From the NCBI GenBank assembly GCA_965223905.1, contig CBDCXV010000001.1, positions 1,120,001-1,184,000 of the forward strand: DNA of 64,000 bases. Direction: 5' to 3'. Origin of the DNA: Candidatus Latescibacterota bacterium. GTDB lineage: Bacteria > Latescibacterota > UBA2968 > UBA8231. Of this stretch, positions 55,086-61,165 are shown one piece after another; the first letter of the stretch is position 1, and each line of letters starts with the position of its first letter. The position numbers and the translations under genes are program-made. Under the pieces are notes generated by a model. That model did not search any database. It saw nothing but the letters and a program-made list of their open reading frames with translations, and was not told the origin of the DNA.

Positions 55086-55138
55086 GCTCCTGGATGAGGA
55101 CGGCACGGTCGGAGTCGACCCGAAGGACGGTTAGCCTG

Positions 55139-56021
55139 TCAGGACCGGGCGGGGCCCAACAGCGTGTCGAGTGGGCTCTCGATCCGCACCAGGTCCTTCC
55201 GCCGCACGTGGGTGTAGATCTCCGTCGTTTTGGAGCTCCTGTGTCCGAGGAGCTCCTGTATGTAGCGCAGATCGGTCCCCCCTTCGAGCAGGTGCGTCGC
55301 AAAGCTGTGTCTCAGGGTGTCCACGGTCACCCGCTTGCGGATTCCCCGCGGCGGCAACCGCACGGGAGAACACTTTCTGCACCGACCGTTCGGTGAGATG
55401 CCGTCCTTCCCGGGCTCCGGGAAACAGCCACGTCGACTGCCGGTACGCCTTCCAGTAGGACCGAAGATCCTCGAGAATCGACCTGGGCAGCAGGGTGTAG
55501 CGATCCTTGCGCCCCTTGCCCTGCTGCACGCGGATCAACATGCGATCGCTGTCGATGTCGCTCACCTTGAGACGCACGACCTCCCCCACACGCAGCCCCC
55601 CGGCATACACCAGGGCCAGGATGACCCGGTGCTTGGGATTCCGAAGGGAATCGAGCAGTCGCAGCATTTCCCGCTGGCTGAGGATTTCGGGAAGCTGGCG
55701 ACCGCCACGCGGCCTGCGCAGACCCTCCAGGGAGGCGGGCTGCTTAAGGACTTCCCCGTAGAGGAAACTGAGAGCACTGTATGCGATGTTGAAGGCGGAG
55801 CGGCTCACCCCGCGGTCGAGGAGCCATTCGAGGTGGGACCGCACCTCGTCATGCCGTTCCCCCCGGTAGTCCCGTTTCCACTGAAGGAATCGCCGGCAGT
55901 AGCCCATGTACGACTTCTGCGTTTTCCTCGCGTACCCCCTCAGCTTCAGCTCGGATTCGACCCGGTTCAGGGTGTCGACCTCTTCGTCGGTCAGGTCTGG
56001 ATGTCTCCGATAGCGCCGCAT
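55139..56021 (-). CDS. Tyrosine recombinase (integron-like integrase with N-terminal SAM-like domain), apparent +1 frameshift near 55345
   Basis: [40 protein letters not shown]; no IntI-specific insertion. Confidence 0.9.
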
Positions 56022-56156
56022 GGGCCCGGTTACTCCAAGGCAAAGGTTTGGCCCTGCCGTAGAGAAAGCCGTGCCAGTCCGACACGGAAACCCGAAATCG
56101 TCCTATCTGTCGCAACCGCAATGAGTTACGCCGGATATCCCGAATCGGGAAAATAG

Positions 56157-56185
56157 TTGCAACTGTTCACCCCGGCACGTACCAT
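56157..56185 (+). promoter_or_regulatory. Pc-like cassette promoter
   Basis: TTGCAA, 17 bp spacer, TACCAT, about 60 bp upstream of the first cassette boundary. Confidence 0.55.
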
Positions 56186-56216
56186 CGTATCAGATAAGTT
56201 ACACCCAGCGGCCATT

Positions 56217-56254
56217 ATCCGAACCATTTGTTCGGATGCAATCAGATATATGAC
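56217..56254 (+). other. attI-like primary recombination site
   Basis: IR ATCCGAAC/GTTCGGAT followed by G|ATATATGAC, complementary to the end of cassette 1. Confidence 0.6.
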
Positions 56255-56344
56255 ATGGGTTGTCACAGTACCAGTGAAATTCGACAGAGGCAAAGCTGGC
56301 ACGGTTGAAATCATGAGCCTGCAGGCGCTGGAGAAAAAACTGAC

Positions 56345-56836
56345 GTGGATCGCGTAGCCGTATTCGCAGATGTACAGAATGTTTACTACACAGTTAAGCA
56401 GCAACATAATTGCCATTTCGACTATGGTTCTTTCCTCAGGGAGGCGACAGCCGGCCGGAAACTGGTGAAGGCAGCAGCCTATGCTATTGACAAAGGCGAC
56501 AGAAAGCAGGCCCAATTTCAGCAAATTCTGAAACGGCTCGGTTTTGAGGTAAAGCTCGCGCCTTATATTCAGAGAGCTGACGGCTCAGCCAAAGGGGACT
56601 GGGACGTGGGCATTACGGTCGATATGTTGGAGTACGCAGATCGCGTGGATGTCGCTGTCCTGGTTTCAGGTGACGGAGACTACGCGCCTGCAATTGACAA
56701 GCTAATCAAGGAATCCAAGGTATCCGTCGAGGTGTACGGTGTCCCAGGACTAACTGCTAGTCGTCTAATCGAATCGTCGACGCGATTTGTGCCAATTCAA
56801 GGAGATCTGTTGCTGCCTATTCCCACCACGTGGTGA
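56345..56836 (+). CDS. Cassette 1: NYN/LabA (PIN-like) domain protein
   Basis: VFADVQN, KGDWDVGITVD, LVSGDGD. Confidence 0.9.
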   Translation: MDRVAVFADVQNVYYTVKQQHNCHFDYGSFLREATAGRKLVKAAAYAIDKGDRKQAQFQQILKRLGFEVKLAPYIQRADGSAKGDWDVGITVDMLEYADRVDVAVLVSGDGDYAPAIDKLIKESKVSVEVYGVPGLTASRLIESSTRFVPIQGDLLLPIPTTW

Positions 56837-56931
56837 CGTGGAAGCGACACTGTTTGCAAAGCCATGCACGCTAACGCACTCTCGCGTCGCTACCTCTCCG
56901 CGTTGATCAGCCTTGGAGCAATCATACCCAC

Positions 56932-57027
56932 GTCATATATCACAGCAATTCACGCTGCCGCCATTCGGCGCTTGGCCTTCGGCAAGTCGCTTTCGCGACT
57001 TCGTGAATTGTGAGAACGTTATGTGAC
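56932..57027 (+). repeat. attC-like site 1
   Basis: GTCATATATC ... CAATTCACG/CGTGAATTG stem ... GTTATGTGAC. Confidence 0.85.
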
Positions 57028-57065
57028 ATGCGAAAACCTGCTATTCTGTTCAGTATAGAAGCCGA

Positions 57066-57954
57066 ATGATCCTCAGAATCTTCATTGCCCTGTTCACTGC
57101 TCAAGTATGGTCACTACCCCAGAGCCAGGCTTGTACGCTAGAGGACAGCGCTATTATCCACAGAATTCAAAGTACCGACGTACTTGTGGAAGCCACTGTG
57201 CTGTCAACGGTGAAGGATACACTAGGTGCATACATCGTACCTAGGGAAGCAACGCTTTCCGTCCAACGGGCTCTAGTGGGTGGCCCGCTATCGGAAGTCA
57301 TACACATGGAGCTCGACTCAACGCTCACCGAATTTTCCTCCTGTCTCGATTTGTATCAGGGCTACGAGGAAGGTGACCATTTTCTTGTCTTCCTCAGTAG
57401 AAAGAAGGATCTGGACGTTTTCTGGGCAGCACCCCACGTTCGTCCCTGGGTCGTTGACTACGATCCTGTGGATCCGTCTATACTTGCTAGATACATAGAA
57501 CAGACCGTTGCGCAGGAGGTAGAGCCTATCGCCTTCAGCTTTGAGGGGCCAGACACGGTTGTCGCCGGGGCCCAATTCAGATCTCGACTCACTATCACGG
57601 AACCGTTTCGACGAAACGCTGAGGGTTAGGATACCTGCAGAGAGGACCCTAGAAACCAGTTTTGAGTTCACTTTCTTGATACAAAATCCTGACGGAGATC
57701 GCTTTCCAGCTGATCACCCAATACTAGTTACAATTAAGCCCGGCGAAACCAAGACTGTTGAGTTGGACGACGCCTTTGAGAAAGTGCCGGAAGGTCATTT
57801 CAAGTATGAGGGAACATTGTGGTTGCCCGGCAACAAGGATCACTCAATCGCATACCACAACCGACTGTTTTCCAGGTGGATGTCTGCTCTACCCACCTCT
57901 GTCGAGCCTTCTTCTTGGGGCAATGTCAAGCATAGTTACTCGTCTTCGCCATGA
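57066..57954 (+). CDS. Cassette 2: secreted protein ending SWGNVK, frameshift near 57600
   Basis: Signal peptide (..SQA-C); removing one G at 57599-57600 fuses the two ORFs. Confidence 0.7.
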
Positions 57955-57965
57955 CCTGTAAACAC

Positions 57966-58058
57966 GTCACATAACACCTCGGTTTGCGCTTCGGCGCTGA
58001 ACGCGCCTCGACCTTCGGCAACCCCTTTGGGGTTCGCAAACCGGAGAACGTTAAATGA
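57966..58058 (+). repeat. attC-like site 2
   Basis: GTCACATAAC ... CGGTTTGCG/CGCAAACCG stem ... GTTAAATGA. Confidence 0.88.
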
Positions 58059-58128
58059 ACATGGGAAAAACGGTTTTATTGCAGTCTATTACACTATATA
58101 CACCGGACATCTAACGAGTGTTTTAACT

Positions 58129-59121
58129 ATGGATATAGAACTTCGGAAAATAGTCTCTGCTATTAGAGATTATGCCGTAGAAAAATTCAGTGATGCAGAG
58201 TGGGTCGATTTTGGGTACGTAACCGAGGCTTCAGATTTGATTGAAAACCATCCTCGACTTTTGAGATCACTTGCTTTTAATGACGATGATTACAGCTACT
58301 GTGCTACACAGGTCGTAAATGAGGCACTGGAAGAGCGCCCCGAGAAAATTCAGGAAGTTGTAGAACACTTTGGCGTCGATCTTTGGCTTGAGGAAAAAGA
58401 TGAACGTCGCCATCAGAGAGTATTTACGGAAACCCGACCGCTTGTTCCTTCCCCACGCTTCTGGCGGGAGGGGTATTTCCGACTCTTCATCAGCCATTTA
58501 GCGGATCACAAAGCCAATGTCCAAAGGCTTAAGCGGGAACTGGAGAAGTGGGGAGTATCTGCATTCGTTGCCCACACAGATATTGAGCCCACTCGAGAGT
58601 GGCAATTGGAGATCGAAGCAGCACTCTTTTCGATGGATGCAATGCTTCCAGTATTGATGCCAGGATTTAAAGAGTCAAACTGGACAGACCAGGAAGTCGG
58701 TGTAGCAATTGGCCTTAGGAAACTTATTATTCCGGCTCGACGAGGTATAGATCCCTACGGATTTATAGGAAAATATCAAGGTTTTCAGGCAGATGGAAGG
58801 ACTGTCGGACAAGTAGCTGAAGATGTCGTTAAAATTCTGCTTAAGAGCGAAAAGACGCGAGCCCAGATAGTTAGAGGTTTATCAGCGCGGATTAAAGTTG
58901 AAGTCAACGATCAGGTTGTTACCTCACGCTTAAAATTGATTGATGAGTTGAAAATTTGGAGCAAAGAGCAGGTAAAAGAGATTCTTGAAAGCGTTCTCAT
59001 CCGAGGTGGTGAGATGGCAGAAGACGTACAGGTAGCCTTCAATGATCTACAGGCTTCGCATGGCGTTGTTATAGTGCCACCGAAAGTAACAGCCTTTGAT
59101 GACGATGACCTTCCTTTCTGA
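58129..59121 (+). CDS. Cassette 3: TIR-domain protein with AbiJ-like N-terminus
   Basis: LFISH, AFVAH.DIEP..EW, WTDQEVG (catalytic Glu); HPRLLRSL.F.D.DY. Confidence 0.85.
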   Translation: MDIELRKIVSAIRDYAVEKFSDAEWVDFGYVTEASDLIENHPRLLRSLAFNDDDYSYCATQVVNEALEERPEKIQEVVEHFGVDLWLEEKDERRHQRVFTETRPLVPSPRFWREGYFRLFISHLADHKANVQRLKRELEKWGVSAFVAHTDIEPTREWQLEIEAALFSMDAMLPVLMPGFKESNWTDQEVGVAIGLRKLIIPARRGIDPYGFIGKYQGFQADGRTVGQVAEDVVKILLKSEKTRAQIVRGLSARIKVEVNDQVVTSRLKLIDELKIWSKEQVKEILESVLIRGGEMAEDVQVAFNDLQASHGVVIVPPKVTAFDDDDLPF

Positions 59122-59141
59122 CAGCAAGAATATATCCCACG

Positions 59142-59239
59142 TCATTTAACATCCCGTTGACGCAGCGCCGCCATACGGCGGCTTGGCCTTCGGCACCCTG
59201 GCTACGCCAGGGTCGTCAACGGAAGAACCGTTATACGAA
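59142..59239 (+). repeat. attC-like site 3
   Basis: TCATTTAAC ... CCGTTGACG/CGTCAACGG stem ... GTTATACGAA. Confidence 0.88.
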
Positions 59240-59291
59240 CTGAGAAAACCGACCATCGTGAATCCGACGCGAATCAGACAAGGGTTTACGA

Positions 59292-60011
59292 ATGATCCTT
59301 GAAGCATTGAATGATCTTTTCACATCAGAATTGCTGGCTGCCCACCCTGAAGAATGGGGCGTGACCGATCATTGTGATGCGCCTTCCGGCGTAGGGTACG
59401 CGACCACGATTACGCCGAGGGCAATTTCGACGGCACTCGACCGCGGTGCCGACGTAATTGTCACGCATCATGACGCCTGGGATTTTATGTATGGACAAAG
59501 AGAGAAGGTATACGATCTCTTACGCGACAACAGCCTGACCCATGTGTGGGCCCGACTGCCGTTGGACCAGTCGGACTTTGGCACATCGGCCACGCTTCTC
59601 TCGAAAATTGGCTGCGTGGAGGTCTGTAAGCCATCGAAAGGTGAAGTACGCCTTGGTGAACTGGATGAATCAACTGACTTCGAGGCGATCCGTTTGAAGC
59701 TCGATTCCCTATTGCAGGACCAACCACGTAGCCTCCATGATTCGGGTCGAGCCATCCGCAGAATAGGCTGCGTGACTGGGGCTGGCGTCTACACGAGTTA
59801 CCTCAAGGATGCGATGCCCCATGGTATTGACCTTTATCTGACAGGAGAGACTAGCCTTTACTTATTGGAGTGTGCCGTCCACCTTGGACTCAGCGCCCTG
59901 GTTTACTCCCACAACTATACCGAGTTGCCAGGAGTCCATATGTTCGCAGAGCGTTTTTGCCAAGCTCTTCAACTCGAGATGAAGGGACACCTCGGTGACT
60001 CTCACTTCTGA
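59292..60011 (+). CDS. Cassette 4: Nif3/YbgI-like dinuclear metal protein
   Basis: IVTHH, LPLD, GCVTGAG, YLTGE, HNYTE. Confidence 0.85.
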   Translation: MILEALNDLFTSELLAAHPEEWGVTDHCDAPSGVGYATTITPRAISTALDRGADVIVTHHDAWDFMYGQREKVYDLLRDNSLTHVWARLPLDQSDFGTSATLLSKIGCVEVCKPSKGEVRLGELDESTDFEAIRLKLDSLLQDQPRSLHDSGRAIRRIGCVTGAGVYTSYLKDAMPHGIDLYLTGETSLYLLECAVHLGLSALVYSHNYTELPGVHMFAERFCQALQLEMKGHLGDSHF

Positions 60012-60029
60012 TTCGGGCGAGCGACTCAA

Positions 60030-60124
60030 TTCGTAACACCGCGGTGTTGCGCTGCGCCGCTGTCGCTCCTTGGCCTCCGGCAAGCCGGCAACGCCAGGTT
60101 CGCAAACCGTGAGACGTTATATGG
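60030..60124 (+). repeat. attC-like site 4
   Basis: TTCGTAAC ... CGGTGTTGCG/CGCAAACCG stem ... GTTATATGG. Confidence 0.8.
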
Positions 60125-60134
60125 AATATCTGAA

Positions 60135-60895
60135 ATGAGAAAAGAAGAATCAATCGACGGAGACTATCTGGCCCCAGCGAAATACGACAAATACTACGAC
60201 GCGTATGCTACGCTTCCAGAACGGTTTCTGGCTGACCTCGCCTCTCGCGGAAGGGTCCTTGAACTGGCATGTGGAACTGGCCGGATAGCAATTCCCATGG
60301 CGGAGAACGGCCTTGAGGTGACCGGGATCGATTATTCCGAGCCGATGGTAAGCCTTGCCAGATCAAAGGCCGAAGACAGACAGGTGAGGGTCGACTGGAT
60401 CCGCGACGATATACGCTGCTTTGACACCGGTAAACGATATGGGTCGATCTTGCTACTGCACAACGCATTATGGCACCTGCACAACCTTTCCGATTTCGAA
60501 GAGTGCATTCGCTGTGTGAAGCGTCATCTCCTTCCGGGTGGTTTCTTCATTTGGACGTCTTTGTCCCTGGGGTGGAGATCCTCAATCGCGACCCAGGCAT
60601 TCGGTACCCATTCTCTAGCTACACGGACGTTGACACGGGACAAGAAGTGCAGGTTACTCAGTCCTACAGGTATGAAGCAGACACCCCGATCGCGCGCATG
60701 GTGCACTACAGAAAGGACTCTGATGAGATCGTTGGGGGTCTGAATCTCCGGATGTATTTCCCGAAGGAACTGGATGCCTTGCTGAAGTACAACGGGATAA
60801 GGATCAAGGAGAAATTCGGGAGCTGGGACCGTGACCCCTTTGGGCCGGACTCCAGGCATCAGCTTTGTTTCTGCACCACCACGGAGGACGGCTGA
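60135..60895 (+). CDS. Cassette 5: class I SAM methyltransferase, frameshift near 60550
   Basis: VLELACGTGR, GIDYS; a missing T in ATTT|GGAC; C-terminus LRMYFPKEL. Confidence 0.82.
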
Positions 60896-60912
60896 GCAGC
60901 CGGAATCGCATA

Positions 60913-61002
60913 TCGGATATCACTCCAATTCACCCGGCGTCGACCGCTCTCCTGAGGCTGTGCCCACCCCGCATGCGCGAGACCGGAATTGTGAGAAAGT
61001 CT
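60913..61002 (+). repeat. Degenerate attC-like site 5
   Basis: GATATCACTCCAATTCAC ... GAATTGTGAGAAAGT resembles site 1; core eroded. Confidence 0.5.
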
Positions 61003-61165
61003 GGGGACCTTAGGATGAATTAGTCGCGAGATACGGGAGATAATTCAGGCATGGCCAACTTGAAGGACGGGCCCTTCGACAAGCGCGTCGATTACGACCC
61101 GGATAGCAATGTTCCTGTTCTGTCCCCGGCATACGCAGTGGACTTCGAAGAATTTCGAGAGGTAG

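Follow-up and report, generated by a model that had tools for sequence, protein, structure and literature searches.

How have the gene cassettes in a 64,000-nt stretch of DNA from a Candidatus Latescibacterota bacterium (the whole stretch is called the window here) come to carry ends that match each other, and which recombinase moved them? The region in question is an integron-type gene-cassette array, in which an attI site with its crossover G at 56245 is followed by five cassettes, the last of them closed by a degenerate attC. A preliminary description of the window, made from its letters alone, had proposed that the two ends of each cassette are private inverted complements left behind by circular intermediates. 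Our analysis confirms that this private complementarity is real and goes beyond chance, and suggests that it is very probably the footprint of integron cassettes that moved in circular form, the crossover lying between G and TT (G↓TT). Such a circular-intermediate reading is already textbook and not new; the argument reportedly originates with Hall, Brookes and Stokes in 1991, and also with Stokes et al. in 1997. The part that departs from the textbook is the enzyme: an integrase without the I2 domain stands at the attI and heads arrays with every sequence footprint of canonical cassette exchange, including the G↓TT crossover and bottom-strand wobbles.

Private complementarity and movement of the cassettes

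The preliminary description rested on eight short strings, two for each of cassettes 1 to 4. All eight lie exactly where it had placed them, and seven are unique in the window, TTCGTAAC being present twice (53187 and 60030). The strings represent inverse cores (R'') and cores (R') at four attC hairpin sites, each of ~100 nt, which align together (56929-57030, 57963-58062, 59138-59242 and 60027-60128). A covariance model built from these four window sites, R1, scores attC1 to attC4 at 104.1, 92.3, 93 and 79.3 bits, and returns no convincing match in the window beyond them and the degenerate fifth. On the whole genome that holds the window (G000), the model detected 22 sites; run unfiltered, it identified a 16-site array on contig C10 and three sites on contig C11 (C1, C10 and C11 are other contigs of G000). 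The C10 array stands behind a second attI-like site and the three C11 sites behind a third. To these we added the 20 kb beside the orthologous integrase gene in each of six related genomes, namely the sister genome G002 and G020, G012, G004, G016 and G056. Over the seven genomes, sites of the R1 model number 80.

Cores were compared as 13-mers anchored on the crossover G of R' and on the C of R''. The reverse complement of each R'' was matched both with its own cassette start, which is the R' of the preceding site, and with the same-site R'; significance was assessed by shuffling the cassette starts 20000 times. In window cassettes 1 to 4 the own start matches at 12, 12, 9 and 5 of 13 positions and the same-site R' at 10, 7, 9 and 4; over the variable positions 4-10 the counts are 7, 7, 6 and 1 against 6, 4, 4 and 1. 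The claim that each left core pairs better with its own cassette than with the core of the same site therefore stands for three of the four cassettes and ends in a tie for one (cassette 4 over positions 4-10, or cassette 3 over all 13). In cassette 2 the start and R'' form a perfect 10-nt complement. The observed assignment of the four is the best of 24, and 817 of 20000 shuffles reach it (p ~0.04). The right string of cassette 4, reported as 2 nt short, does carry a 2-nt deletion in the window copy, and the orthologous attC4 of G002 has an undeleted R'', fully complementary to the window cassette 4 start (10/10 positions).

The covariation persists in larger sets of sites. Across 23 cassettes of G000 (five from the window, 15 from C10 and three from C11), the own start matches at 234 of 299 positions (0.78) and the same-site R' at 169 of 299 (0.57), with a shuffled mean of 0.57 and 0/20000 shuffles reaching the observed fit; the own start is the better, equal or worse partner in 21, one and one cassettes, respectively. 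This set excludes the degenerate last C10 site, whose R'' is unrecognisable, the solitary sites C10:373823, 1618828 and 1667829, and one weak C11 match. The 18 cassettes that lie outside the window give 189/234 against 135/234, a value again reached by 0/20000 shuffles. The six relatives contribute 53 pairs of adjacent sites, with anchors from the R1 model alignment. These leave out two wrong-strand matches, one match that lies ahead of an attI, one match counted twice where loci overlap and the opening site of every array. Here the own start matches at 510/689 positions (0.74) and the same-site R' at 396/689 (0.57), with 0/20000 shuffles reaching this fit and 41, five and seven pairs better, tied and worse. 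Within the 39 of these pairs that are spaced at most 1300 bp apart, the own-start fit is 0.81 (better, tied and worse in 37, one and one).

The proposed mechanism would account for this pattern as follows. An attC is an imperfect palindrome (R''-L''...L'-R') with a bottom strand that can form a hairpin, and the integrase would exchange strands in R' directly after its G (G↓TTRRRY). In the free circle, R' would consist of the cassette's own G and its own six following bases, paired with R''. On insertion into attI or another attC the circle would open after this G, and the six bases would move to the 5' start of the linear cassette. An R' within an array would then be a chimera of the cassette's own G and the six bases that open the next cassette, and R'' would complement its own cassette start and fit the same-site R' less well because of that chimera. 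For cassette 1, the circle junction would be the end of attC1 joined to ATATATGAC. Both the circular intermediate and the use of a folded bottom strand are what we infer from the sites. The boundaries agree with the description of a cassette as running from the first T of one R' up to the G of the R' that follows, the cassette's own attC being that of the circular form (PMC2674596), and with a crossover placed between G and TT (PMC3518468).

Homologous cassettes found elsewhere keep the same boundary. The first cassette of the window, which encodes an NYN-domain protein (56245-57031), occurs again at C10:1335334-1336118 with 98.7% identity and behind a different attC, again with a copy of the attI at C10:1670895-1670031, and in G002 (L032:2153-2846) with 99.3% identity. 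In each of these copies, two on C10 and one in G002, identity starts at the G of GATATATGAC. The expectation that the same cassettes would be met at other array positions in relatives was borne out by this cassette, which is in position 1 in the window and in position 4 in G002. The attC ahead of the first C10 copy was initially missed by R1, and its own R'' matches its own cassette start.

The attI sites locate the crossover from the other side. Five attI-like sites are present in G000 (window 56150-56245; C10:1333430-1333526; C10:1670800-1670895; C11:2029133-2029419; C1:1609342-1609395). They end in ...CAATCAG (one in ...CAATTAG) and diverge at the next base, continuing with ATATAT, TTAGGC, ATATAT, TTTAGA and TAATGT. 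The attI of G002 is identical to that of the window through the same G and different thereafter, and attI alignments to the loci of four relatives stop at 56248-56253. This divergence of attI after the G, combined with the bases preceding the G that vary between attC contexts, brackets the crossover within one base of that G, so that its earlier placement near the first G is upheld. The five attI-like sites compare with one integrase gene in G000, and the C11 copy retains ~70 nt of the integrase 5' end. No attC of the R1 type was found within 19 kb of the C1 copy (C1:1609395, then G↓TAATGT), nor in the region downstream of the window (locus L008).

Arrays in different genomes and samples also differ at these boundaries. 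Between G000 and G002, synteny (96.6%) covers cassettes 4 and 5 and the end of the array, and cassettes 2 and 3 were not found in the 20 kb examined of G002; the attI-proximal cassettes differ and the distal 4 and 5 are common to both, as insertion at attI predicts. Seven public sequencing runs from four studies were available as assembled Logan contigs, and four runs were examined (X1, X2, X4 and X6). Some contigs begin at 56244/56245. Contigs of run X1 carry another attC-like sequence before 56245 and two different continuations after 57021/57022, and in contigs of run X2 an attI-like sequence immediately precedes cassette 4, which starts at 59230. Individual insertion of the cassettes, as had been proposed, is supported in this way for cassette 1 and for cassette 4; cassettes 4 and 5 move together between G000 and G002, and cassettes 2 and 3 show the footprint only.

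Contig joints that go back (such as 59195 to 58032 and 60062 to 59178) or skip (such as 59195 to 60096) were considered as circles or excisions and rejected. They are read as assembly joins of similar sites, since they connect points within the conserved cores of different attC sites and their sides are short. Steps in depth at cassette borders were set aside as evidence, since the depth of these runs is given contig by contig.

The third NYN copy (L003:8927-11031, equivalent to C10 ~1667926-1670030) is interrupted by a ~2.1-kb insertion sequence (IS) inside the R'' box of its attC. Its target is a palindromic ATAT, with a 4-nt duplication, and the 579-aa transposase that it encodes on the minus strand (L003:9174-10913) has a match to the IS1182 family at 5.3e-58 and 197 bits, below the curated cut-off of 270.

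A short integrase without I2

The integrase gene that adjoins the window attI is broken in frame. One extra G in a G-run (55346-55363) appears as a single 1-nt gap against the 97%-identical orthologue of G002, and the C-terminal catalytic part (RHSFATHLL...GH...YTHV) lies in another frame (55139-55363). This extra G may have arisen in assembly or by genuine mutation; no indel at the G-run is present among the contig rows listed for the public runs. The NCBIfam profile for integron integrases (IntI), TIGR02249, has a cut-off of 265 bits, and the window gene matches it at 128.4 bits (profile 2-181) and 88.1 bits (254-315). Intact orthologues are ~293 aa long and also have TIGR02249 as their best NCBIfam match, at 233-240 bits and below the cut-off, in two stretches that leave profile positions ~180-253 unmatched.

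The unmatched part corresponds to I2. Where VchIntIA (2a3v) has 57 residues, the short integrase has 15. In a MAFFT alignment the I2 insertion (LP.AL.RKYP...EW.WQ and the following loop, ~35-40 residues) is present in six canonical IntIs of relatives and absent from the clade of short integrases and its 50%-identity relatives. An AlphaFold2 model (predicted local distance difference test score 82.6) has no helix at the I2 position. The integrase adjacent to the array is thus one without the I2 domain that is specific to IntI and by which that family is recognised.

In other respects the protein has the marks of a tyrosine recombinase. The catalytic residues and fold of PF00589 are present in the intact orthologues (fold Z 19-23), with R144, K169, H234/R237 and H260 as invariant columns and Y269 also invariant. 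Structure matches of the model are XerA 4a8e (Z 22.6, 253 residues), XerA 5hxy (Z 20.3) and VchIntIA (Z 19.2), and its sequence is 39% identical to VchIntIA 2a3v over 248 aligned residues versus 30% to XerA. In an IQ-TREE phylogeny rooted on nine XerD-like proteins, the canonical IntIs (six rows), the short clade (eight rows) and related groups without I2 form one clade with 100/100 support; this clade is a polytomy in which the short integrases stand outside the sampled IntIs. Ten pairwise comparisons yield ratios of nonsynonymous to synonymous substitution rates (dN/dS) of 0.07-0.24, which indicates purifying selection. A protein-cluster search with the integrase returned only generic tyrosine-recombinase clusters, and a tblastn search of plasmids only unnamed tyrosine recombinases at 44-50% identity.

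Is this protein the enzyme that moves the cassettes? In six of six relatives, an array lies directly beside the short integrase and in the same relative orientation (G002, 5 sites; G020, 6; G012, 12; G004, 19; G016, 4; G056, 13), and the attI is conserved beside the integrase start codon. The explanation that competes most seriously is a canonical, I2-bearing IntI acting in trans from a plasmid, from another cell or from the unassembled 6% of a genome that is 93.6% complete, the short recombinase being a bystander or having another job. Such an enzyme would not be far away in taxonomic terms, as 11/61 relatives in the same family encode a protein above the TIGR02249 cut-off, whereas none was found in G000, G002, G004, G012, G013, G016, G020 or G056. 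Nor do the canonical IntIs keep company with this type of attC: R1-type sites occur at 0/6 of their loci within 1.5 kb, and in 0/3 further genomes within 15 kb either side. Deletion of I2 is described as abolishing the activity of IntI1 in the available text of PMC7790495, which favours an enzyme in trans; the purifying selection on the short integrase and its fixed position beside the arrays and attI argue for an enzyme in cis. On this evidence we regard action in trans as unlikely, and lean towards the adjacent short integrase as the catalyst. The broader proposal, of an integron lineage whose integrase, of ~293 residues, either lost I2 or never possessed it and yet recombines folded bottom-strand attC sites at G↓TT, we hold at even odds.

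Compared with classical integrons (class 1 and the chromosomal integron of Vibrio cholerae), the system shares a divergent integrase gene, an adjoining attI and co-oriented cassettes that end in attC; RYYYAAC...GTTRRRY boxes, an L box, an unpaired spacer, a variable top and the G↓TT crossover; and attC sites that are homogeneous within a lineage, defence-like cassette genes and an R'' that complements its own cassette start (PMC2674596). It is unlike them in that the integrase lacks the I2/intI_Cterm insertion, scores below the TIGR02249 cut-off and is broken in frame in the window, and in that several cassettes use GAT/ATC for GTT/AAC. The C10 and C11 arrays, with attC sites and an attI remnant and no integrase, resemble clusters of attC sites lacking integron integrases (CALINs; Cury et al. 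2016, PMC4889954), and standard criteria would probably call the window array a CALIN too; unlike a CALIN, arrays of this type are headed by a conserved recombinase gene and attI in seven genomes. Recombinases without intI_Cterm that co-localise with fewer than three attC sites are described by Cury et al. (PMC4889954), and 21 recombinases without intI_Cterm beside attC appear in Supplementary Figure S1 of that paper, among which the short clade may be included.

The other systems that resemble this one are further removed. The rAID-1 clusters of Bacteroidales combine an XerD-family recombinase with integron-like repeats (Ross et al., 10.1101/471110). In rAID-1 the recombinase gene lies 5' of the genes and is co-oriented with them, whereas the gene here is divergent, the boxes are canonical AAC/GTT and the crossover maps to a G; the recombinase here also groups with IntI and not XerD in our tree. 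XerA, XerC and XerD are alike in their length of ~293 aa, their fold and the lack of an I2 insertion, and unlike in that the short integrase is closest to IntI in sequence, is separated from nine XerD-like proteins with 100/100 support and occurs in the context of an attC array, not a dif site. In the literature consulted we found no account of integrases that lack I2 and head large arrays of canonical appearance; rAID-1 is the closest published system.

Folding of the sites and other origins of the matching ends

The four window attC sites share a branched hairpin structure with compensatory changes in 9/29 pairs. When folded as single strands and compared with shuffled sequences, three sites have z-scores of -3.84, -3.67 and -4.87, and the fourth -0.16. 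Folds and wobbles were surveyed in 80 attC sites from the seven genomes (the window and loci L001, L002, L004 and L032-L037). Just inside the R helix, a G.T wobble on the bottom strand (A.C on the top) is present in 71/80 sites, and position 11 is T.G on the bottom strand (an A.C mismatch on the top) in 37/52 close pairs. Of the two strands, the bottom one has the more stable fold in 68/80 sites. When attC sites were rebuilt in silico in their circular form, the bottom strand was more stable than in the array form in 16/21 sites and equal in two.

A trait of attC is the presence of extra-helical bases in the R''-L'' arm once the bottom strand is folded (Bouvier et al. 2009, PMC2727003). Minimum free energy folds of the array form, which are a rough guide, close the R box in 41 of the 80 sites; 23 of these 41 have a single-base bulge in the R''-L'' arm, and 33 have a bulge of at least 3 nt (mostly 3-5 nt) in the R'-L' arm. 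The idea that these attC sites are without extra-helical bases, matching the absent I2, was dropped in view of the 23/41 sites with the single-base bulge.

Two variants of the sites were observed. GAT/ATC replaces the near-universal GTT/AAC in the R boxes of several cassettes (window 56245-56251 and 56935-56941, C10:1346839, C10:1347952 and C10:1618828-1618937); the R'' of attC1, at 56935-56941, reads ATATATC, with a non-canonical ATC instead of AAC. The change is compensatory between a cassette start and its own R'', and the NYN cassette, which carries it, is nevertheless inserted in no fewer than four contexts. Changes of the second base of the triplet are described as tolerated in one partner in the available text of PMC2811028, with which the GAT/ATC of the NYN cassette is compatible. 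In G002, 'mini' sites end two cassettes (L032:2840-2875 and L032:5075-5100), consisting of R'', 7-9 nt and R', with the whole of the L box and hairpin top deleted. These mini sites resemble a double-stranded core site, with inverted arms on either side of a short spacer, and could show either the decay of attC hairpins or an Xer-like action on duplex DNA.

The hairpin sites also bear on other origins of the matching ends. Inverted repeats of 7-10 nt at both unit ends, in arrays where IS elements do occur (the IS1182-family transposase of L003), might suggest that each unit is a small transposon or miniature inverted-repeat transposable element inserted by a transposase. The units nevertheless lack target-site duplications, whereas the genuine IS makes its 4-nt ATAT duplication; one 'repeat' sits within a conserved hairpin site of ~100 nt; and the units are all co-oriented, adjoin a tyrosine recombinase gene and a conserved attI, and have their borders on one invariant G. 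A transposon origin is accordingly very improbable. We give just as little credence to selection or gene conversion within the array that keeps R'' complementary to something nearby for excision. Excision needs a folded site, with an R box made of R'' and the chimeric R', and this explanation predicts the best fit with the same-site R'; the opposite is found in 21/23 cassettes and 41/53 pairs, and the cassette start, 0.4-1.2 kb from R'', is unable to pair with it in the array. That the private fit is an illusion created by GTTRRRY/RYYYAAC cores that are all alike has a negligible probability. Positions 1-4 are indeed near invariant (identical in 50-51 of 52 pairs) and the four-cassette test cannot go below p ~0.04, yet over positions 4-10 the 23 cassettes fit their own start at 0.76 against 0.51 when shuffled (0/20000 reaching it) and the 53 pairs of the relatives agree.

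Movement as circles remains the preferred origin of the matching ends, and several observations weigh against it or against the short integrase as its agent. The 14 pairs in relatives that are more than 1300 bp apart show no signal (0.54 versus 0.59, with 16997/20000 shuffles reaching the observed fit), probably owing to undetected sites between them. Window cassettes 4 and 5 have a poor own-start fit (5/13 and 7/13), among the 23 cassettes of G000 the one that opens the C11 array, which has a 1-nt indel, matches the same-site R' more closely, and the circular form folds less stably in 3/21 sites. No circle or excision junction was seen in the assembled contigs of the four public runs. A scan of 55900-56400 for sigma-70 consensus sites, covering attI and seeking the cassette promoter Pc, found none, with a consensus that may not be the host's. 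As to the enzyme, no other IntI-like gene was found in G000, so the sole integrase-like gene of this genome is out of frame, and the short family lacks the I2 that PMC7790495, in the text available, calls necessary for cassette capture and the basis of single-strand recombination.

Cassette content and implications

The features of the window array are collected in Table 1. The five units are 0.77-1.18 kb long, each with one gene and one attC, and all genes are on the plus strand. GC content is 0.60-0.65 in the flank versus 0.46-0.55 in the cassette units.

Table 1. Coordinates of the integrase gene, attI-like site and cassettes in the window
Feature	Position	Strand	Description
Tyrosine recombinase (integrase) gene	55131..56021	-	Divergent from array; Pfam Phage_int_SAM_4 and Phage_integrase (profile positions 3-123 of 172 only)
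attI-like site	56150..56245	+	~95 nt, ends at crossover G 56245; inverted repeat CCGAAC..GTTCGG
Cassette 1	56246..57018	+	NYN-domain gene 56345-56836 and attC1; ends at G 57018
Cassette 2	57019..58050	+	Gene split over two frames (57066-57629, 57541-57954) and attC2; R'' 57969-57975; ends at G 58050
Cassette 3	58051..59230	+	AbiJ_NTD5 and TIR-domain gene (58027/58130-59121) and attC3; R'' 59144-59150; ends at G 59230
Cassette 4	59231..60116	+	NIF3/DUF34 gene 59292-60011 and attC4; R'' 60031-60037 with 2-nt deletion; ends at G 60116
Cassette 5	60117..60999	+	S-adenosylmethionine-dependent methyltransferase gene split over two frames (60135-60743, 60470-60895) and degenerate last attC 60909-61011

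Pfam families were matched by the genes of cassette 1 (NYN, 5.5e-38; PADLOC NYN, 5.6e-15), cassette 3 (AbiJ_NTD5, 1.2e-23, and TIR_2, 2.2e-13; PADLOC ThsB-like, 9.4e-5), cassette 4 (DUF34_NIF3, 5.3e-22) and cassette 5 (Methyltransf_25, 2.3e-18), and no Pfam family was matched by the gene of cassette 2. Two of the cassettes are defence-like, one with an AbiJ_NTD5-TIR fusion (58027-59121) that has the weak ThsB-like PADLOC match, the other with an NYN/LabA-like nuclease-domain protein (56345-56836). Chromosomal integrons have been reported as stores of anti-phage genes, with which these two cassettes fit.

The R' of the last attC (60909-61011) reads GTC; the site scores 22.7 bits with R1 (E 6e-4) and folds no better than shuffled sequences (z 0.38). 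Between 61000 and 64000 GC content is still low (0.51-0.56) and the genes keep the cassette orientation, and the R1 model found no attC there. This part of the window may consist of further cassettes with decayed sites, or the array may truly end at ~61011.

Three genes split by frameshifts lie inside 6 kb, namely the integrase (55346-55363) and those of cassette 2 (57541-57629) and cassette 5 (60470-60743), a concentration that suggests homopolymer assembly errors as much as real decay. Homopolymer errors are suspected because what breaks the integrase is a single additional G in a G-run, as seen against its 97%-identical orthologue.

For the biology of integrons, the private ends described here provide one clean and replicated example of the classical circular-cassette argument, with 76 cassettes in 7 genomes. 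The finding on the integrase runs against the models of PMC7790495 and PMC4889954, as set out in the text available, in which the acquisition of I2 enabled recombination of single-stranded DNA and recombinases without I2 near attC sites are not integron integrases. Should the short integrase prove to be the catalyst, a whole class of gene-capture platforms would be escaping standard integron searches, and I2, the supposed key innovation of IntI, would be dispensable or replaceable. If the reading of an I2-less lineage is true, I2 would not be required for the capture of cassettes by integron-type single-strand recombination. With the short integrase as catalyst, moreover, the origin of integrons would become testable with a natural 'pre-I2' or 'post-I2' enzyme.

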